Below are positions 865-10,057 of a DNA stretch of 64,000 nucleotides, in pieces. The translations under genes were made by a program, and so were the position numbers. How positions within the stretch are numbered: position 1 is the first letter of the stretch; each line of letters starts with the position of its first letter. The notes under the pieces were generated by a model, which did no database searches, was not told the origin of the DNA, and worked only from the letters and a program-made list of their open reading frames with translations. Source of the stretch: Candidatus Methanomethylicia archaeon (GTDB lineage: Archaea; Thermoproteota; Methanomethylicia; CALHIW01); assembly GCA_038845975.1 (NCBI GenBank), contig JAWBQF010000002.1, forward strand, positions 64,001 through 128,000, given 5' to 3'.

Positions 865-2337
865 TTAGCTAATTTGCTTAGTATTCGGGTTAAGTTTTCC
901 CTTATATGGAAGAATGCAGCCCATACCTTTATTACCGCCTAGAGGATTCTGCGGGTTTCCAAATGCGTGCATGCATTTAGCCATTACAGCTGCTCCAAGT
1001 GCTAATCCATCTTCAACAAATACAACCATATCTTCAACTTTAAGGCTTTTATAAAGGTTTAAGTCATCAATGTATTTAAGGATAATTTTAGGTTTAAATC
1101 CTGTTATACCTGCTCTACCAGTAATTCCAATACTGTATTTTTCAGATATTATTCCACTAGATATTAGAATTTCAATTATTCTTTTTACAGCTATTGATTG
1201 AACGAAATCAAGAATTAATGGCATATTATTTGAGCCATAGTCTTCAATAAACTGTCTTCCAAGATCTCTAAGTTTAGGTATTTGATCACCATTATAACCA
1301 ATATCGCATCCAATAAGTAAAATATTTGCTTTAAAGGCAGCTGTTGAATTTATAGGTATCATTCCATATTTAAATACACCGGGAGGTATCTTTTCAATTC
1401 TAACATATTTATGTACTTCATTAGCTAGCTGTTCGGCAACTTCAAATTCTTCTATACTCTTAGCATTATGATGGGGGAATTCAATTACACTATCATATCC
1501 AGCTCCCTGAATAATGGAGTCACTAATAGCTCCACCTAGACCAGTTATGCTACCAATAGTTTCACCGTATGGTAGACAATCATTAATTACCCTACCTTTA
1601 AGAGTTGTTCCGAAATCCATTGTAATAACTGGATTCCTGAAATCAACATTAATCAATTTAGCACCTATCTTAATACCTGCTGTAGATAGTTCAGCCTCCA
1701 TTTCATTAGCCATTATTTCACTATAGGATTTAGGTGGTAGAGAACCGGCAATAGCTCCAGTAAATTGGGAGAGATTAAGTTTAGAGTATTCTCTAATGTT
1801 TAACGGTATATATTCCTTGGTAAGAGGAGCAATCATTCTTGATGGATGAATTTTAGCTTTTAAACATCCCTTAGCTAATGCCTTAATCATTCTACCAACT
1901 TCTTCAGGTGTATTGAAGCTTGATGTAACACCAGTAGATCTAACAACAAAGTGTATATCGTCAATACTTAAACCAGAACTAACTACTGTTTCAGTAATTA
2001 TATCTGCTATAAACTCAGCAATGGATTCTTCTGATAGTGGCTTACCCCATAGGGTTCTACTGAAAACATCTTCTCCAGCTTTAGGATTTCTAGCTTCCTT
2101 AGTTAACTTAACAGTTTTTCTAACGAGATATGTTCTACCAGTTTTTAAATCAGTAGCGGTTACAATACATTTAGTTGTAGTATTACCAAGTTCTACAGAT
2201 ACAACTATGAAGAGAGGGGGTTTGTATGTATTCTCTATACTTGATCTTTCTAGGCCTAAAATTTCACTAATACTATGGTATTTACTACGTGTAATTTTGG
2301 GATTGTATTTATCATATGGATTTCTTTTAAAAAACAA
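865..2337 (-). CDS. Methanogenesis marker protein 14 (DUF2114 family)
   Basis: Motifs SVELGNTTTKCI, HFVVRSTGV, ANEMEAELSTAGIK, DFGTTL and FVEDGLALGAAVMAKCM. Lies directly downstream of mtrH, a usual position for this family. Confidence 0.88.
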   Translation of the reverse strand: MFFKRNPYDKYNPKITRSKYHSISEILGLERSSIENTYKPPLFIVVSVELGNTTTKCIVTATDLKTGRTYLVRKTVKLTKEARNPKAGEDVFSRTLWGKPLSEESIAEFIADIITETVVSSGLSIDDIHFVVRSTGVTSSFNTPEEVGRMIKALAKGCLKAKIHPSRMIAPLTKEYIPLNIREYSKLNLSQFTGAIAGSLPPKSYSEIMANEMEAELSTAGIKIGAKLINVDFRNPVITMDFGTTLKGRVINDCLPYGETIGSITGLGGAISDSIIQGAGYDSVIEFPHHNAKSIEEFEVAEQLANEVHKYVRIEKIPPGVFKYGMIPINSTAAFKANILLIGCDIGYNGDQIPKLRDLGRQFIEDYGSNNMPLILDFVQSIAVKRIIEILISSGIISEKYSIGITGRAGITGFKPKIILKYIDDLNLYKSLKVEDMVVFVEDGLALGAAVMAKCMHAFGNPQNPLGGNKGMGCILPYKGKLNPNTKQIS

Positions 2338-2346
2338 TACTATTCA

Positions 2347-3306
2347 CTACTTCAATAATACAAGTTTTCTGAATGGATGGTTTTCAATAGGTACTATATC
2401 TTCAAACTCGCTATGTACTGCTTCAGCAACTATGGAGTCAGCCATGGCAATAATTGGGAAGACTAGGGGAGCATTCTCAATAGGTCCATAGAGTATAAAG
2501 TTTCCACCGGTTAAAACCTGGAGAATATTGCTTGCTACATCGCATGTCTTAGCTATTTCCCTACCTTCAGAAATGGATTTTTTAACTTTTTTAAGCCACT
2601 CCCAGGCAGATACTGCGTTATGTATACCACTACCTACGGGAAGACCGAGTTTAGCTTTAATTACATAGGTTGACATTAGGGATGGCCCTGCACCGGAGCC
2701 TAATGGTAGAATAGCTACATCTATGAGTGGTTTAGATATCCCAGTTTCCTTAGCTATTTCCAGTAGTCCTCTAGACGTAACTCCTGGAATGCTCTTAGTT
2801 AATAAGTCAATTTTACCCTTAACAGTTATATCTTTAGGATTAAACGCAAGAATGATTGAGGCTTTAATTTTAAGACTATTTAAGGTTTTAATCTCTTCAT
2901 CTGTGATTGATGGATTAATAGAATTGTATATTACTTTATCAATTAATCCGATTTCAGCCGCATAATTTACTCCTTCAATTCTTGTTTTAGCATCTGTTGA
3001 ATCGACTAGAAATGGTGTTTTAGATATTGAAGATATGAAGTCTATATATTTCTTCATAGCTTCAGGAGATTCGGAGAAGACTTGTATAAGATGTGGATTA
3101 CCTGTAATATCGGATATTTCCTCCTGCTTCTTGATAAGTGATTCGGCTATAGCTTTATCGAAAATACCCTTTCTAGGATCTGAAACAATTTTATGACCTC
3201 CATAAAATATTGTACCAGCAAGAACTGTTGGATATTCTCCTGGTTGACCTCCAATTTTAACATTACCAATTTCAAAAACAGCCTGCTCCCTACTAAACTT
3301 AAACAT
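2347..3306 (-). CDS. mtrH: Tetrahydromethanopterin S-methyltransferase subunit H
   Basis: N-terminus MFKFSREQAVFEIGNVKIGGQPGEYPTVLAGTIFY, plus GLPVGSGIHN, LYGPIENA and the C-terminal HPF motif. Last mtr gene of the operon. Confidence 0.96.
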   Translation of the reverse strand: MFKFSREQAVFEIGNVKIGGQPGEYPTVLAGTIFYGGHKIVSDPRKGIFDKAIAESLIKKQEEISDITGNPHLIQVFSESPEAMKKYIDFISSISKTPFLVDSTDAKTRIEGVNYAAEIGLIDKVIYNSINPSITDEEIKTLNSLKIKASIILAFNPKDITVKGKIDLLTKSIPGVTSRGLLEIAKETGISKPLIDVAILPLGSGAGPSLMSTYVIKAKLGLPVGSGIHNAVSAWEWLKKVKKSISEGREIAKTCDVASNILQVLTGGNFILYGPIENAPLVFPIIAMADSIVAEAVHSEFEDIVPIENHPFRKLVLLK

Positions 3307-3314
3307 TAAACCAC

Positions 3315-3542
3315 CTAGATTAATCCTAATAAATACTTAAGGATAATAGTTATTATGAATCCAGATAATATACCATAAATAAAGCCAATATGCATCCCTA
3401 TCTTTAAACCTTCTCTTTGAGATATTTCACCTAAGACAAATTCTACACGTTCATCTATCATGTTTAACTTATCTATTAAAGCTTTAAACTCATCTATTGG
3501 AGCAACTGTAACAGGTATTGTTTGTATTTCATCTTTAACCAT
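3315..3542 (-). CDS. mtrG: Mtr subunit G
   Basis: IDERVEF..GEISQREGLKIG..IGFIYG followed by a C-terminal TM helix. Lies before mtrH and has an AGGTGG RBS. Confidence 0.92.
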   Translation of the reverse strand: MVKDEIQTIPVTVAPIDEFKALIDKLNMIDERVEFVLGEISQREGLKIGMHIGFIYGILSGFIITIILKYLLGLI

Positions 3543-3550
3543 TTAACCAC

Positions 3551-3754
3551 CTACAAGTAGTGAAGTATAAGCCCAAATAATATAAGTGAAATAGTAATAC
3601 CTACTACAAACCCCTTAACAATTCCTGCATAAAAACCGGAGGCAAACCTTGTTTCACGACCAATCATCATAATTCTAGTTTTAATATCTGATATTCTAGC
3701 CTCAATTATGGATGTTTCAGCAGTATATATTGATTTATCCAGTTTATTAGACAT
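3551..3754 (-). CDS. Small Mtr stalk/membrane-anchor subunit in the mtrF position; sequence resembles a stand-alone MtrA C-terminal helix
   Basis: AETSIIEARISDIKTRIMMIG...SGFYAGIVKGFVVG aligns by eye with the MtrA tail (ETALIEARMRNI..VKMIG...GMYSGKVQGIMIG, recalled). Has its own GGTGA RBS and a single TM helix. Confidence 0.8.
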   Translation of the reverse strand: MSNKLDKSIYTAETSIIEARISDIKTRIMMIGRETRFASGFYAGIVKGFVVGITISLILFGLILHYL

Positions 3755-3758
3755 TTCA

Positions 3759-4496
3759 TCACCATATTATCGTTAAGAGTAGGGTAATGTATAGTAGAAG
3801 GGAGATTAATATACCTATCGATACGCCTAAACCTCTTAAATAGGTAATAGCGCTTGTAAGTCTAAGTGTTCTACCTAGAATTTGAACTCTATACCTAATA
3901 TCTTCAAGAAGCTGCTGAGCATTATCGATTACTGGATTTATAGATCCAGCTAGTGGAATTCTTACAGTAATGGGTTTAGCTATAGCCTCCTCAACCTTAA
4001 TGATTAATGGATCAGCAGGATATGCACCTGGATTCCTTAAGGCAAGATCTTCTATTGTTTTCCTTATTATATTTAAATCCTCAACATTAATAAGATTTAC
4101 AAGCTCTACTTGACTTCTAAATCTCTCAATAGCTTCAGGAGTTAAATGTTCAACGAAAGGTATAGCACCAGGTGCATTTTTAATTTTCTTGCTTTCATCA
4201 ATACCGTTCCTCCATAAAGCCTCAATACTTCCACCAGTAACATGACCAGTAACTTCTACTCCACATATTACTAGAAACCTAATATTAGGGTTTGAAATAA
4301 TGTTTGCAATCATCTTCTCAATTCCAATATTTTCGGTTTTACATGGACCAGCTATTGCAACACCAGGTATTGAAGCTACCTTCTTTACAAGTGCTTCACT
4401 AGATAATAGACATACTGCAACAGGTGCTTTAGGATCTGAAACTATAAATTCACCAGTTACTATAGGCCATTCCTGAGCAGGTTCAACCTTACTCAT
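3759..4496 (-). CDS. mtrA: Mtr subunit A corrinoid domain fused to an MtrF-like C-terminal stalk
   Basis: WPIVTGEF, GPCKTENIGIEKMIANIISNPNIRFL, EVTGH (cobalt-ligand His) and GAIPF. The C-terminus LEDIRYRVQILGR matches the MtrF signature EDI(R/K)YRxQLIGR. Confidence 0.95.
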   Translation of the reverse strand: MSKVEPAQEWPIVTGEFIVSDPKAPVAVCLLSSEALVKKVASIPGVAIAGPCKTENIGIEKMIANIISNPNIRFLVICGVEVTGHVTGGSIEALWRNGIDESKKIKNAPGAIPFVEHLTPEAIERFRSQVELVNLINVEDLNIIRKTIEDLALRNPGAYPADPLIIKVEEAIAKPITVRIPLAGSINPVIDNAQQLLEDIRYRVQILGRTLRLTSAITYLRGLGVSIGILISLLLYITLLLTIIW

Positions 4497-4500
4497 ACAT

Positions 4501-4809
4501 TTACCCTCTTAAGGAGATAAATAGGATAATTAAGCTGAAAACAAGAGACCCAATAAGAAAGCCTAAAGCAATATTACTGAGTAAACCTATACTTCTATAT
4601 AGACCGTTTCTACCAGGTCTTGAGGATACTAGTGGAGATGATTTTGGATTAAGAGATAGGAGAAGTTCTCTTGATAGAAGGTCAAGCTCATCAATAATTT
4701 TGTATAAAGGAGATAAGTTTAAGTAGGCTACATCAGATCTAGATTCTCCAATAAGCTTATAATCTTCATCAAGTACTATATTTATTCTAGAAGATATCAA
4801 TATCGTCAT
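4501..4809 (-). CDS. mtrB: Mtr subunit B
   Basis: SLNP...S.PGR.G motif and C-terminal TM helix (GFLIG). ATGA overlap with mtrC. Confidence 0.9.
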   Translation of the reverse strand: MTILISSRINIVLDEDYKLIGESRSDVAYLNLSPLYKIIDELDLLSRELLLSLNPKSSPLVSSRPGRNGLYRSIGLLSNIALGFLIGSLVFSLIILFISLRG

Positions 4810-5624
4810 TCTAAACCACCTCTACCAGGTATACCTGTCCATAGAGTTGAAGCTGCTTCTCTTCTACATGCATTGTAGAGGCTTATTAATCCATAAATCC
4901 ATATTAATCCCCCAATAGCGATCATTATTATTGCCTCATTAACCATCCATGGCCTTCCAAGTATTCCAGCATTTCCAAGCCTTACAATACCGGATAAACA
5001 TATTGTTACACCGGAAGTTACAGTAGCTATTCTTAAAGTTCTACCCTGCCTTTCATCAGCACCTAAACCTGCATTAAATGGATGGAATATGGCTAATGTT
5101 GAAGCCCAATATATAGCTGCAATAAATCCAGTCCAAAATAATGCTTTAACAACATCATCATTTAAAAAACCATTAAAAACCATCGGTAATAAATCGGTTT
5201 TAGCAACCCCTACTACTAAACATGTAAGTGTTAGGTACCCAGCTAGGGATAACTCAGTAATTAGTCTTGGAAAGTGAGGTATTTTAAGTATTTTAAGCCT
5301 TGATATTATAACGCCAAATATAAAGCCTGTAGCTGCAGCTATTAATACACCTAGTATTGGGCTATACTTTAATCCTACAAGAGAGGAGAGAATACCTATA
5401 CTTACTGAGAGATTACCTATTGATGGAACACCCGTACCTAAACCATAGGATGCGATTCTCCTTACAGTATCAGCTCCCCAAATAATCGATGGAATAGCGA
5501 GTATTGCTGCTAGAGATGGTATACCTAGACATATACTGAGTAAACTTAAAACTATAGCTATAACTGCTAAATAGCTGGAGCTTACTGAAATCCTTTTCTC
5601 AGTTAATACACTAATATGAGTCAT
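4806..5624 (-). CDS. mtrC: Mtr subunit C
   Basis: WGADTVRRIASYGLGTGVPSIG and HPFNA.LG..E...RTL motifs; polytopic membrane protein. Confidence 0.95.
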   Translation of the reverse strand: MTHISVLTEKRISVSSSYLAVIAIVLSLLSICLGIPSLAAILAIPSIIWGADTVRRIASYGLGTGVPSIGNLSVSIGILSSLVGLKYSPILGVLIAAATGFIFGVIISRLKILKIPHFPRLITELSLAGYLTLTCLVVGVAKTDLLPMVFNGFLNDDVVKALFWTGFIAAIYWASTLAIFHPFNAGLGADERQGRTLRIATVTSGVTICLSGIVRLGNAGILGRPWMVNEAIIMIAIGGLIWIYGLISLYNACRREAASTLWTGIPGRGGLE

Positions 5625-5633
5625 AAAACCACC

Positions 5634-6389
5634 TTACAGTATAAACAATAATGTAATACATCCAAAAACTATTGATGCTAGAAAACATGCTAAAGCGGTT
5701 CTCGGAGTATTCTTAAATTTCGGATCCCACCATCCCTCTATAACACCTCTAATCGCATAAGCTGTAATGTTTGCATTGATTAGAAACATTCCAAGTGCTA
5801 TAGTAGCTGCAATAACAATACTTGAAAGAACATTACTACTAGATACTTCAATTAGCTGTGAAAATATAGCTTCTATAGATGGTGTTAAACCTAAGGCTTT
5901 AATTACTAATAGTCTAAATACCGGTATAAAAGTTAATGCTCCACCAAGCCCACCTAGAAAGGCTCCAATAATGCCACTTATAAAGCACGCTGTTGGAATA
6001 CCGTGACCAGTTGTACCTGGTGTAATGTAGATTTTAACATTTTCACCAGTTATTGGATCCTTCTCCCTCGTATATAATGCTGGAGGAACACCACGTCCAT
6101 AAACAGCTAGGAAGTTACATATTAACATTACTGTTGACATCATTATAGCTGAGCTTAAACCTGCATTAACCATAACTATTAATCCATTCTCTCTAAACAA
6201 TACTGCTGACATTAAAATGCCTGTAATTCCGGATCCTGTAAGCATCATTTCAGCGCCTGTAGCGATTCCAGTTGAGGTAAACATAGCTGCTGGAGCTCCA
6301 CCAATAGGTAGAAGCATAGTACCAATGGAGATTAAGATACCTGCAATAGCTATAGCTATTAGGATAATTATCAGTATGAGGAAATCCAT
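5634..6389 (-). CDS. mtrD: Mtr subunit D
   Basis: PIGGAPAAM, KDPITG..YITPGT.GHGIPT.CFISGIIG and IEG..DPKFK motifs. Confidence 0.95.
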   Translation of the reverse strand: MDFLILIIILIAIAIAGILISIGTMLLPIGGAPAAMFTSTGIATGAEMMLTGSGITGILMSAVLFRENGLIVMVNAGLSSAIMMSTVMLICNFLAVYGRGVPPALYTREKDPITGENVKIYITPGTTGHGIPTACFISGIIGAFLGGLGGALTFIPVFRLLVIKALGLTPSIEAIFSQLIEVSSSNVLSSIVIAATIALGMFLINANITAYAIRGVIEGWWDPKFKNTPRTALACFLASIVFGCITLLFIL

Positions 6390-7336
6390 TACTTCCCACC
6401 TTCCAGCTTAATATTCTCCATGTATGGTCCAAACTTTCTACGAGCCCAAACCTCAATCCATCTATTAACTAGGAAAAGCATAAACACTATTACTAACCCT
6501 ATACATACATTTAAAAATACTTGCCCATATATATTACCTAGAAATATTCTAAAATTATCAAATAGTAGAATTAATCCGTAACATAAGCCAGCCATCATAC
6601 TACCATACTTAGTACAGAACCATACAGTATCAATACTATTCCTCCAGCCAAGTTCAGCTTTAATAGTTATATTTCCATAATACTTTGTAGATACACCCTC
6701 TCCATAAACTGTATGCTGGTAAAGTCTTTCACCACCATAGTGAGTATCACCTGTAGAAGATCCTATTGAACCGGAAATAATTCCAAGCATTAATGTAAGC
6801 ATTGGAATTGCTACTGGATAGCCTATATATCTACTAATATCAGCATTAAAGATAATGCTTGTTGAGGCTGTATACATTATATATGATATTGTTAAAATGG
6901 TTAGCGTAACCATGAAACCATGAGTACCTATCAACGGTAAGTGGCTTACTAGAACGTCAATATATATTGGCTGCCCAAATCTTCTCTGACTTGTTATTCT
7001 ACCTAGATAAGCTGTAGTAGCAAACGTCATATGGAATAGTGTTGTTAAACCACATGATAAAGGTATTGAAATTAATGGATGAATATTCCATCCAAGCCAT
7101 AAAGCTACAAAAATAGTTCCTGCAGTCATACACCACATACCATTCGATACAGGCTCCCCAGATATAGCCTTATTGAAAAATCTATGTATAGTACCTACTT
7201 GCGGTGCAAGCTGTACTTGAGAATTTGGATTACTTTGAGAACCTATATCGGATTCTGCATCCTCAAACCATCCAGCAATAGTAATTAAACCTACAATTAA
7301 TGCTAATACTCCAATAGCTATTAATATAGGCTCCAT
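6389..7336 (-). CDS. mtrE: Mtr subunit E
   Basis: ESDIGSQSNPNSQVQLAPQ, HRFFNKAISGEP, GSSTGD.HYG.ER and RNSID..WFC motifs. Confidence 0.96.
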   Translation of the reverse strand: MEPILIAIGVLALIVGLITIAGWFEDAESDIGSQSNPNSQVQLAPQVGTIHRFFNKAISGEPVSNGMWCMTAGTIFVALWLGWNIHPLISIPLSCGLTTLFHMTFATTAYLGRITSQRRFGQPIYIDVLVSHLPLIGTHGFMVTLTILTISYIMYTASTSIIFNADISRYIGYPVAIPMLTLMLGIISGSIGSSTGDTHYGGERLYQHTVYGEGVSTKYYGNITIKAELGWRNSIDTVWFCTKYGSMMAGLCYGLILLFDNFRIFLGNIYGQVFLNVCIGLVIVFMLFLVNRWIEVWARRKFGPYMENIKLEGGK

Positions 7337-7504: not shown

Positions 7505-8647
7505 GTGGATGGATTAAGTCTATATAGGAATATAGTTGATCTATGTGTTAGCTGTAGATGTGGGAAATGCTTAGATTCATGTCCAATATATAGAGTTGTA
7601 AGAAGGGAGATGGTAAGCCCTAGAGGGAAGCTGAAAGTAATACATGCATACCTTAAAGGGGAAATTTCTCCTTCAGAAAGCTTACTGGAAAGCATAGCGT
7701 ACTGTACCTTATGTTTAGCCTGTGAAGTCAACTGCGGGATAAATAGGTTAACAAGCATGCATATAAGTATGAGTAGGATAATACCCTCCTTTAGATGGGA
7801 GCTTATAAAGAATGGTTATGAGCTTCCACAATATAAATCTATTATAGATGCAGTATGGAAGACTGATAATATATTTGGTGATGTTAACCATAAGTCTAAA
7901 CAGCAAATTCATAGTGGAGATGTTGAAGTTATTTATTGGTCTGGTTGTGTAGCATCAGTTAGGAGAAGAAATATAGATATATCGATAAGCAGTATTTTAA
8001 GTAAGCTTAAAGTAGATTTTAAATCATTAAATAATTTATGCTGTGGATACCCATTATATCAGATAGGTTACTGGAAGGATTTAGAGGCTATAATCGATAA
8101 AAACATGGAAGTCATTAGGAGACTGGATTCGAATACTGTGGTTAGTAGTTGTCCAGCATGCATAGGGTTTATTAGAGATTTTTATCCTAAAATAGTTGAG
8201 GGAAAACTACCGTTTAGGGTTAAGCATATTTCTGAAGTATTTCAAGAATATGTTGAAAGCGGAGATTTAAAGCTAAATTTTGAGGATAGAGATATAGCTG
8301 TAGCTTATCATGATCCATGCCATTTAGCTAGATACTTAAATATTTATGATCAGCCTAGAAATATCTTAAAGAATATGAATATCAATCTTATAGAAATGGA
8401 GAAGAACAAGTTAGAAACTGAATGCTGTGGTGGTGGGGTTAGGTTAGTATTACCTGAATTATCAACAACAATCGCAGCTCAAAGAATTCTTACAATACCT
8501 AAGAATACAAATTACCTATTAACATCATGTCCAACATGTACGATAAATCTAGGTGATGGAGTAACTATTGCTAAGGTGCTTTACGATTTTAATACTGACG
8601 TTAAGGTTATGGATTTAGCTGAATTTATTTGTCAATTCATAAAGTAA
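7505..8647 (+). CDS. HdrD/GlcF-like Fe-S oxidoreductase (2x[4Fe-4S] plus two CCG domains)
   Basis: CRCGKCLDSCP and CTLCLACEVNC ferredoxin motifs; CCG domains SGC..LCCG..SCPAC and HDPC..ECCG..SCPTC. Confidence 0.88.
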   Translation: MDGLSLYRNIVDLCVSCRCGKCLDSCPIYRVVRREMVSPRGKLKVIHAYLKGEISPSESLLESIAYCTLCLACEVNCGINRLTSMHISMSRIIPSFRWELIKNGYELPQYKSIIDAVWKTDNIFGDVNHKSKQQIHSGDVEVIYWSGCVASVRRRNIDISISSILSKLKVDFKSLNNLCCGYPLYQIGYWKDLEAIIDKNMEVIRRLDSNTVVSSCPACIGFIRDFYPKIVEGKLPFRVKHISEVFQEYVESGDLKLNFEDRDIAVAYHDPCHLARYLNIYDQPRNILKNMNINLIEMEKNKLETECCGGGVRLVLPELSTTIAAQRILTIPKNTNYLLTSCPTCTINLGDGVTIAKVLYDFNTDVKVMDLAEFICQFIK

Positions 8648-8650
8648 AGT

Positions 8651-10057
8651 TTAGAAAAATATTCCAGGATTTAAGATGCCCCTCGGATCCAAAATATTCT
8701 TAATTTTCTTTAAGATTTCATAGCCGTATCCTAACTCCATAGGTATCATGTCCTTAGCATCTATTTTTACACCCATAGAGTGAGATATTGAGCCTCCAAG
8801 CTCTAAACCTACTTTAAGCATTTCTCTTATAGCTTTAATATAAATAGGATACTTCTCCCTATTTTCCTCATCAACCCTATAGAAGAAGTCAATATACATT
8901 GGATCAAGCTTTAATATAAGAGCACCAAGAGGCTCAACATCATATGTTTTAAGGATACTGTAGAGTTTATCTAATGCCTTCTTTACGTTTATTAATGGTA
9001 TAGCTATATCTATACATCCCCAGCCACCCTTACCTGTTGCTGCTAGAGCTGAGTAAAAATCTGAAGTATAGCCTGAAATATATTGAACAACTTCACCACT
9101 ACATATTTCCCCACCGAGACTTAGACATATCTTTAAAACCTCATTTCTAAGTAAGCTGTAGATTTCACTATTGTATCCTATGATATCTACTAATACAAGT
9201 ATGTTTGATAATGGTATTTTAGATCCGTAAACCATTCTCCTATGTTGATTAACTGCAACTTCATCCCAGACTGTAAAACAAGCTATAGGTAGATTTTTCT
9301 TCTTTATTTCATTAGCTAATTTAAGTGCATCATCAATACTGTTAAAAGCTATTAGAATACTATCCTTAACATTAGGCTTAGGATATATTCTTAATGTTGC
9401 CTCTGTTATTATTCCAAGTGTTCCACATGTACCTATAAATAGCCACTTCAAGTTAAAGCTTGAAGATGACTTCCTAATCTTACCTGAAGTTCCTCCACCA
9501 ACATTAAGAATATTTCCAGTAGGTAAAACTACTTTAAGACTTGAAATACGGTCACCAATAGATCCGTAAACCATTTGCAATCCATCAACTCCACAGTAGG
9601 CTATAGAGCCACCAATTGTAGCAGCATATCTACTTGCTGGAAAATGTGGAGGTATATAGCCCTTCCTTTCAAGTTCATATGCTAGTCTAGCACATGTTAT
9701 TCCGGCTTCACATGTTACATACATATTCTCCTCATCAATTTCAATAATTCTATCCATTTTCCTCAAGTCAATAACTATACCGCCATATCTTGGAATTGCG
9801 CAACCACTTATCCCTGTAAGCCCACCTACAGGTGTTATTGGAATTAACTTCTCATTAGCTAGCTTAACAATCTCACTAATCTGAGCAGTATTTTCAGGAT
9901 AGACAATTAATTCAGGAGGCTTAAACCTAGGATATGGCTTATAGAAGTCTTTAACATAACATAATAAATGAAAACTCTCCCTTAAAACATTTTCTTCACC
10001 TACAATTCCAGCAATTCTCCTAATAGCCTCCTCATCTACACGATTATAATACTCCAC
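8651..10057 (-). CDS. FAD-binding oxidoreductase (GlcD / D-lactate dehydrogenase / VAO-PCMH family)
   Basis: GGIVIDLRKMDRI, ATIGG, FIGTCGTLGIIT and C-terminal KNILDPRGILNPG. Confidence 0.9.
   Translation of the reverse strand: MEYYNRVDEEAIRRIAGIVGEENVLRESFHLLCYVKDFYKPYPRFKPPELIVYPENTAQISEIVKLANEKLIPITPVGGLTGISGCAIPRYGGIVIDLRKMDRIIEIDEENMYVTCEAGITCARLAYELERKGYIPPHFPASRYAATIGGSIAYCGVDGLQMVYGSIGDRISSLKVVLPTGNILNVGGGTSGKIRKSSSSFNLKWLFIGTCGTLGIITEATLRIYPKPNVKDSILIAFNSIDDALKLANEIKKKNLPIACFTVWDEVAVNQHRRMVYGSKIPLSNILVLVDIIGYNSEIYSLLRNEVLKICLSLGGEICSGEVVQYISGYTSDFYSALAATGKGGWGCIDIAIPLINVKKALDKLYSILKTYDVEPLGALILKLDPMYIDFFYRVDEENREKYPIYIKAIREMLKVGLELGGSISHSMGVKIDAKDMIPMELGYGYEILKKIKNILDPRGILNPGIFF

Follow-up and report, generated by a model that had tools for sequence, protein, structure and literature searches.

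Which stalk helix carries the corrinoid domain of the archaeal methyltransferase Mtr, and what is encoded by the small gene directly downstream of mtrA? Both questions are raised by an mtr operon on the minus strand of a 64,000-nucleotide (nt) stretch of DNA, referred to here as the window, from a Candidatus Methanomethylicia archaeon (assembly GCA_038845975.1, contig JAWBQF010000002.1, positions 64,001 to 128,000). Mtr, the N5-methyl-tetrahydromethanopterin (H4MPT):coenzyme M (CoM) methyltransferase, catalyses the sodium-pumping, energy-conserving step of methanogenesis, and is part of the reverse pathway in anaerobic methanotrophic archaea of group 1 (ANME-1). All eight Mtr subunit families scored above their Pfam cut-offs within positions 2347-7336, in the gene order mtrE-D-C-B-A-(67 aa)-G-H (aa, amino acids). 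Relative to characterised euryarchaeal Mtr, two paralogous stalk-helix modules of ~60 residues appear to have been swapped in this operon, such that the corrinoid domain is joined to an F helix and the A-anchor is a separate gene, a reading to which we assign a probability of roughly 0.8. The modules appear to have been exchanged rather than duplicated.

An earlier note, made from the letters of the window alone, had proposed this swap, and its particulars were borne out by the searches described below: a 245-aa MtrA that keeps its corrinoid domain, lacks the acidic linker and ends in an MtrF signature; a following 67-aa gene with its own GGTGA that resembles the canonical MtrA C-terminal helix; a single cobamide domain; and the retention of all four stalk helices. 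The swap at the core of the note was favoured by every similarity test, although topology tests left an alternative based on gene position unrejected. The layout is not a peculiarity of this one genome.

An MtrF-type helix at the C-terminus of MtrA

Canonical mtrEDCBAFGH operons, as in Methanothermobacter marburgensis and Methanosarcina mazei (structures 8Q3V/8Q54 and 9QTQ; PMC10998594, PMC12774963), served as the reference for the window operon. In the published description of the M. marburgensis stalk, three MtrAc helices (A-anchors) form the cytoplasmic stalk core on the threefold axis, with core layers at P185, A188, A192, N196, T199 and M203, and are surrounded by MtrB, MtrF and MtrG. MtrF is paired with MtrB, its helix being kinked at G28 and G44, and a Glu/Gly-rich linker connects MtrAc to the mobile domain (PMC10998594).

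The mtrA open reading frame (ORF; 3759-4496, minus strand) encodes 245 aa and starts with a corrinoid-binding domain (residues 1-171; 3984-4496) that matched PF04208 at 229 bits over residues 3-171, the only PF04208 match in the whole genome (2.77 Mb, 76 contigs, 93% complete). H85 lies in a column that is invariant across 16 aligned MtrA sequences, Methanothermobacter included, and we infer that it is the cobalt-ligand histidine, the counterpart of His84 in M. marburgensis (PMC10998594). The domain is followed by a short, non-acidic linker (about residues 172-185, AIAKPITVRIPLAG; 3942-3983), as seen in the alignment and in linker statistics. Measured from the PGA motif to the helix module, the start of which is approximate, it spans 17 residues with a net charge of -1, compared with a canonical median of 25 residues and -9. 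The Glu/Gly-rich linker of canonical MtrA is replaced here by a shorter and nearly neutral one. A 'PLA' motif within the linker also occurs in TACK (Thaumarchaeota, Aigarchaeota, Crenarchaeota and Korarchaeota) and ANME-1 rows of the alignment.

In methanogens, the recognition motif of Connectase is KDPGA, which is cut between D and P. Residues 153-159 of the window MtrA (4020-4040, minus strand) hold RNPGA at this motif, in which the Asp of the scissile Asp-Pro is replaced by Asn, and other TACK rows of the alignment have DPGA or DLGA.

The remainder of the protein (residues 186-245 and the stop codon; 3759-3941) corresponds to a stalk helix. Residues 185-237 matched the Pfam MtrF family PF09472 at 44.6 bits (cut-off 22) within the full-length protein. 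When the tail was scanned alone (residues 175-245), it matched PF09472 (47.9 bits, cut-off 22), NF009776 (50.0 bits, which falls below that model's equivalog cut-off of 64) and TIGR02507 (36.9 bits); only MtrF models were matched in this curated-model scan, and no mtrA model. Among Mtr chains in the PDB, the tail matched the MtrF chains 8q3v_F (29.5 bits) and 9qtp_P (25.5 bits) and no MtrA chain, and the residues aligned with both MtrF kink positions (G28 and G44) are Gly. The 16-sequence MtrA alignment shows the same distinction, with an MtrF-like tail in the window (LLEDIRYRVQILGR) and tails reading ETALIEARMRNIQTQ...AGMYSGKVQG in Methanobacteriales. Judged by these matches, the MtrA tail is an MtrF-type helix, scoring above the PF09472 cut-off and preferring MtrF over the paralogous A-anchor.

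Affinity of the 67-aa protein to the MtrA anchor

The next gene (3551-3754, minus strand; 67 aa) occupies the mtrF position. The gene is an independent ORF that starts at an ATG of its own, and its product has no covalent tie to the corrinoid domain. The end of mtrA reads TGG-TGA, and the resulting GGTGA lies 4 nt upstream of the ATG of the 67-aa gene, forming a Shine-Dalgarno-like motif that overlaps the mtrA stop codon (3755-3763, read directly from the minus strand).

The position of the gene suggests a simple identity. Under a positional reading, written EDCB[AF]FGH and so worded in the published account of this operon type (PMC9982363), mtrA would have lost its anchor and become joined to a second copy of mtrF, leaving the free gene as the true mtrF and a complex with two F-type helices and no A-anchor. 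Gene position fits, Pfam's precomputed annotation assigns the free homologues to PF09472, and the window protein itself matched that family at 31.1 bits with a cut-off of 22. Nonetheless, references of the A-anchor type outscored MtrF references in every test. The top curated match of the 67-aa protein was to positions 185-238 of the mtrA model TIGR01111, i.e., the last 54 of its 238 positions (45.5 bits), compared with 32.9 bits for NF009776, 31.1 for PF09472 and 24.7 for TIGR02507 among the MtrF models. Likewise, solved MtrA chains were matched at 36.1 bits (8q3v_A, residues 184-235) and 35.0 bits (9qtq_A, residues 185-237), and solved MtrF chains more weakly (22.5 and 18.8 bits). In our reading of the alignment, the 67-aa protein has A, S, A, D, T and M, all small or hydrophobic residues, at the positions of the MtrAc core layers P185, A188, A192, N196, T199 and M203.

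An exhaustive phmmer search with the 67-aa protein against 1.84 billion cluster representatives (E <= 0.001) returned 16 matches, comprising four free homologues, 11 canonical MtrA C-termini, several of which still include acidic-linker or partial corrinoid-domain sequence, and one 1184-aa protein (~30 residues aligned). None of the 16 was a canonical MtrF. A search for homologues of near-equal length found five close relatives. A complex prediction with three copies of the protein, which asked about MtrAc-like self-association, scored 0.00 and counts neither for nor against. A complex that lacks the threefold-axis core helix would also be hard to square with the solved stalk (PMC10998594). 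We therefore regard the positional reading as unlikely. By homology, the 67-aa protein is a relative of MtrAc that lies outside any MtrA polypeptide, and all four stalk helix types (A-anchor, B, F and G) are still encoded in the operon.

Phylogenetic placement and held-out models

Helix modules were drawn with a 69-position hidden Markov model (HMM) from the ORFs of 177 loci, with the window operon counted as one. With a threshold of 30 bits, 329 modules were obtained, of which 168 are fused to an MtrA domain and 161 are free, and clustering at 80% identity left 127 representatives. In a maximum-likelihood tree of these (IQ-TREE, LG+C20+F+G4, 62 columns), a single branch of 0.79 substitutions per site separated the A-anchor type from the F type (ultrafast bootstrap 100 / SH-aLRT 99). 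The A-anchor side, with 52 rows, unites canonical MtrA tails with the free genes of the swapped lineages (34 fused tails; 18 free genes, that of the window among them). The F side (75 rows: 34 fused tails, including that of the window, and 41 free genes) unites canonical MtrF with the fused tails of the swapped lineages and with the tails of A2::F fusions. The nearest relatives of both window modules were TACK loci. Each of the A-anchor and F clades serves as the root for the other, with the split between swapped and canonical sequences at the base of the anchor clade (88/86).

A quick tree recovered the same split. In 28 loci, the MtrA tail grouped with the A-anchor type and the free gene with the F type. 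The reverse arrangement was found in 17 loci, namely the window, one genome of the window's phylum, and loci titled TACK, ANME-1/Methanophagales, Methanolliviera, 'Halobacteria archaeon' and 'Methanosarcinales archaeon'. In two further loci, A1 grouped with the anchors and A2 with the F type, and in no locus of this tree did both modules fall on the same side.

Held-out profile HMMs gave a consistent assignment, with the MtrA tail going to MtrF and the 67-aa protein to the MtrA C-terminus. When models were trained on loci with titles of the forms Methanobacteri-, Methanobrevibacter and Methanotrich- (23 tails and 20 free genes) and applied to loci titled TACK, ANME-1 or Methanoliparia together with the window, the A-anchor model was preferred by 31/31 free proteins (median +14.7 bits, minimum +6.4) and the MtrF model by 31/31 fused tails (median -37.0 bits). 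With groups taken from the tree, 56/56 free proteins went to the A-anchor and 56/56 fused tails to MtrF, and the reverse held-out test on these groups placed 107/107 and 105/105 modules as expected for their types. Across both tests, the median preference of the fused tails for MtrF was 37-50 bits. In the tree-based test, the window's free protein scored 64.6 bits against the A-anchor model and 37.4 against MtrF, and its tail 52.8 against MtrF and 5.1 against the A-anchor. Strict diagnostic columns distinguishing the two types numbered four, too few to supplement the HMM scores.

Several points weigh against a swap. The 67-aa protein clears the Pfam MtrF gathering cut-off, as given above, and its preference for the A-anchor amounts to a margin of 6-37 bits between paralogues and is not an exclusive match. 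The tree-based HMM groups are partly circular, and for that reason the test was repeated with groups from record titles. Moreover, no locus in the tree and module set is named as Methanococcales or Methanopyrales. Although the A-anchor/F split in the tree is strongly supported, approximately unbiased (AU) tests did not reject two rival groupings, one holding all 59 free rows together (delta log-likelihood 25.5, P = 0.168) and one that, within the swapped lineages, unites the 18 free rows with the 31 fused ones (delta log-likelihood 22.8, P = 0.193); with 62 columns, these tests are low-powered. Both groupings are compatible with the positional reading, against which stand the 100/99 support for the split and the unanimous held-out assignments.

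The second of these groupings also bears on convergence, in which a lineage-specific duplication would have given rise to both helices of the swapped lineages, and the free copy would have gained A-anchor-like residues on occupying the axis position. The resemblance to MtrAc would then be functional and not orthologous. The modules are indeed short (about 60 aa) and strongly constrained by helix packing, and monophyly of free and fused modules in the swapped lineages is what the AU test left standing. However, the likeness of the free protein to the A-anchor covers the entire module, its N-terminal E-T-x-x-I-E-A-R stretch included, with a margin of +6 to +37 bits in 31/31 cases, and the preference of the fused tails for MtrF would exceed what packing constraints might be expected to produce. 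Convergence thus seems very unlikely to us, and an exchange of the A-anchor and F modules remains our preferred explanation.

Distribution of the swapped layout

The layout is not particular to this genome; it was shared by all sampled TACK, ANME-1 and Methanoliparia loci. Among 80 named loci from a related-locus search, the swapped pattern was present in every one titled Nezhaarchaeota/-ales, Hecatellales, Thermoprotei, Methanophagales/ANME-1, Methanoliparum or Methanolliviera, and the opposite pattern in loci titled Methanobacterium, Methanobrevibacter or Methanotrichaceae. Swapped loci have an MtrA tail of the form ...DI.Y+.QLI.R..+L and a downstream small gene of the form (T)PE.A.I.A+I.D...IG...RFA.G...G.VKG. 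Counted as distinct sequence pairs, 46 were swapped and 90 canonical, five were A1 + A2::F, six had F only and three had the anchor only.

Genome sampling by phylum gave a similar picture. In the window's phylum, 8 of 301 sampled genomes had an MtrF match, the window's genome included; the best match lay in a 249-269-aa frame in 8/8, with a weaker second match in a 67-123-aa frame just downstream in 7/8. In the phylum of a Methanotrichaceae locus, 143 of 251 sampled genomes had a match. The best match was of 47-67 bits in a 243-305-aa frame in 31 of these (sequence verified for one, G005 = L036, Methanoliparum), of 70-82 bits in a 250-258-aa frame in eight, and in a 61-189-aa frame in 103 (one was not listed). 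Five of the eight genomes with 250-258-aa frames were inspected (L169-L173), and 5/5 encoded an mtrA-1 with its own anchor alongside an mtrA-2::F. The phylum of G001 yielded canonical-type loci only, and that of G004 was represented by six genomes. On the sequences sampled, the swapped layout extends across the whole clade of Mtr operons from TACK, ANME-1 and Methanoliparia.

This breadth also bears on whether an assembly or gene-calling error at the junction of mtrA and the small gene of a metagenome-derived genome could have produced the arrangement. The genome is in 76 contigs, and the junction was compared with contigs rather than with raw reads. Contigs of 12.5-13.7 kb from four runs of four hot-spring studies nonetheless covered window positions 3300-4900 with 0 differences and 0 gaps (some of the runs may be the source sample), and the layout recurs in the 46 distinct sequence pairs, which come from many independent assemblies. 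We consider an artefact extremely improbable.

Other variations in operon structure were observed across the loci. L051, L066 (Methanobacteriota archaeon 4559-240) and L117 are without a small F-type gene between mtrA and mtrG, and in the six genomes of the L066 phylum the sole MtrF match (31-37 bits) is on another contig or far from mtrA. The A1 + A2::F loci L171 and L173 have a second mtrG-like gene (107-108 aa) after mtrG, the N-terminal part of which resembles the start of MtrB. As for mtrH, it directly follows mtrG in the window and in Hecatellales and ANME-1 loci; in the Nezhaarchaeota-type loci L003, L004, L005, L008 and L009, there was no mtrH within about 4 kb downstream of mtrG.

Comparison with published Mtr architectures

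A TACK-type operon, EDCB[AF]FGH, has been published by Mei et al. (2023, PNAS Nexus, PMC9982363); it shares its gene order and its MtrA-MtrF fusion with the window operon and occurs in TACK orders, Methanoliparia and ANME-1. The window operon belongs to this type, having an MtrF-type C-terminus on MtrA, then the small helix gene and then mtrG. It differs in interpretation: the published account, the phylogenies of which leave out F and G, takes the fused helix to be a duplicate mtrF and the free gene to be mtrF, whereas here the free gene groups with the MtrA anchor, and the modules would have been exchanged without an extra copy of F.

Fusions of mtrA to mtrF beside a full-length mtrA, which the earlier note had mentioned, are likewise documented. 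Wang et al. (2015, PMC4632066) described mtrA-2, fused to F or G, alongside a full mtrA-1, and MtrA paralogues with A, F or G anchors have also been reported (PMC7980362). The mtrA-2a type of Methanococcales and Methanocella arvoryzae (PMC4632066), which combines an MtrA domain with an MtrF helix as in the window, was present in the 5/5 inspected Halobacteriota loci (L169-L173). Genomes with mtrA-2a, however, keep a full-length, anchored mtrA-1, in the order A::T then A::F, whereas the window has a single MtrA domain and an A-anchor without a corrinoid domain. With one PF04208 match in the 93% complete genome, the window's fusion gene is not accompanied by a full-length mtrA-1.

Compared with canonical mtrEDCBAFGH, the window shares the eight subunit families, one corrinoid domain and the four stalk helix types (Ac, B, F and G), but its corrinoid domain is tethered to an F-type helix and its Ac-type helix is a free 67-aa protein. 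In the available text of the literature on MtrA/MtrF fusions, Mtr structure, and TACK and ANME-1 Mtr, we found no statement that the free gene is the MtrA anchor. The A::F fusion is already published; the identity of the free gene as a detached MtrA anchor appears to be new.

Operon neighbourhood and reaction direction

The eight families (PF04206, PF04207, PF04211, PF05440, PF04208, PF09472, PF04210 and PF02007) form one cluster on the minus strand. Upstream of mtrA lie mtrE (6389-7336; 315 aa; PF04206, 323 bits), mtrD (5634-6389; 251 aa; PF04207, 218 bits), mtrC (4806-5624; 272 aa; PF04211, 159 bits) and mtrB (4501-4809; 102 aa; PF05440, 60 bits; TIGR04166, 62.5 bits). The 67-aa gene is followed by mtrG (3315-3542; 75 aa; PF04210, 67 bits; TIGR01149, 61 bits) and mtrH (2347-3306; 319 aa; PF02007, 416 bits). 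Directly 3' of mtrH is a gene for a 490-aa DUF2114 protein (865-2337, minus strand; PF09887, 555 bits), and a similar 507-aa ORF (5112-6635) follows mtrH in the Hecatellales locus L010. On the other side, an HdrD-like gene (7505-8647, plus strand), the product of which has two CCG domains and a 4Fe-4S dicluster domain, is divergent from mtrE and convergent with a gene for a FAD-linked oxidase (8651-10057, minus strand).

The MCR alpha, beta and gamma subunits had no match in the genome (93% complete), and neither did ComA, while Mch and MtaB are present. Because McrABG are missing while MtaB and Mch are encoded, Mtr in this organism probably runs from methyl-CoM to methyl-H4MPT. A complete Mtr without Mcr has been described in Hecatellales, where its proposed role is to supply an oxidative H4MPT pathway with methyl groups (bioRxiv 10.1101/2021.08.02.454722), and a similar role is plausible for the window genome, which looks like that of a non-methanogenic, Mtr-bearing hot-spring TACK archaeon akin to the Hecatellales description. 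The genome shares its class with an Mtr-bearing family (f5). Culexarchaeia were considered as a possible home for it, but that group is described as having MtrH alone (PMC9723716).

Predicted wiring of the stalk and implications

If the two helix modules have been swapped, the complex would assemble as (A::F)(Ac)BCDEGH. The single cobamide domain of MtrA would be joined through the short, non-acidic linker to an MtrF-type helix, which is peripheral and paired with MtrB in solved structures. A 67-aa MtrAc-type protein would be made from the gene at the mtrF position, its start translationally coupled to the mtrA stop. As for helix positions in the assembled stalk, we infer that the free protein builds the threefold-axis core and that the MtrA tail takes the place of F. 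The origin of the tether of the mobile B12 domain would thereby shift by one strand from its usual place, a modest change in reach that is perhaps compensated by the shorter, neutral linker. In the solved stalk, a short beta-sheet joins MtrAc and MtrF at their N-terminal segments (PMC10998594), and the functional effect of the swap, including that on shuttling, is therefore probably small. A tether that starts only one strand away would also explain the repeated origin and tolerance of A-F fusions.

A broader idea is that Mtr of TACK, ANME-1 and Methanoliparia is a differently wired machine, with a stand-alone axis helix and a B12 domain on the peripheral F helix via a short neutral linker, and that this wiring is either ancestral or an adaptation to the reverse, sodium-gradient-consuming direction from methyl-CoM to methyl-H4MPT. 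The link to reverse operation is drawn because the carriers include methane and alkane oxidisers as well as Mcr-less lineages (Hecatellales and the window genome). We consider this idea unlikely.

The finding has consequences for how these genes are named and compared. In JGI, 'subunit A' is the name given to a 67-aa protein homologous to the free gene product; in NCBI, two ~250-aa A::F proteins appear as 'subunit F'; and Pfam's precomputed annotation has the free homologues as MtrF. Annotation of the small gene and of the fusions (P0121, P0025, P0051) is thus inconsistent, and a rule is needed. Alignments of MtrF picked by position mix paralogues across the TACK-Euryarchaeota split, as do full-length MtrA alignments in their C-terminal columns. 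For structural modelling, if the free small gene encodes the axis-forming anchor, Mtr of ANME-1, Nezhaarchaeota and Methanoliparia would need to be mapped onto 8Q3V or 9QTQ by helix type and not by gene order. The layout is, in addition, a discrete rearrangement character that lends support to an idea already published, namely acquisition of a TACK-type Mtr by ANME-1 and Methanoliparia. Finally, the swapped lineages offer a natural experiment on whether the attachment point of the tether and the acidic linker matter for shuttling between MtrH and MtrCDE.

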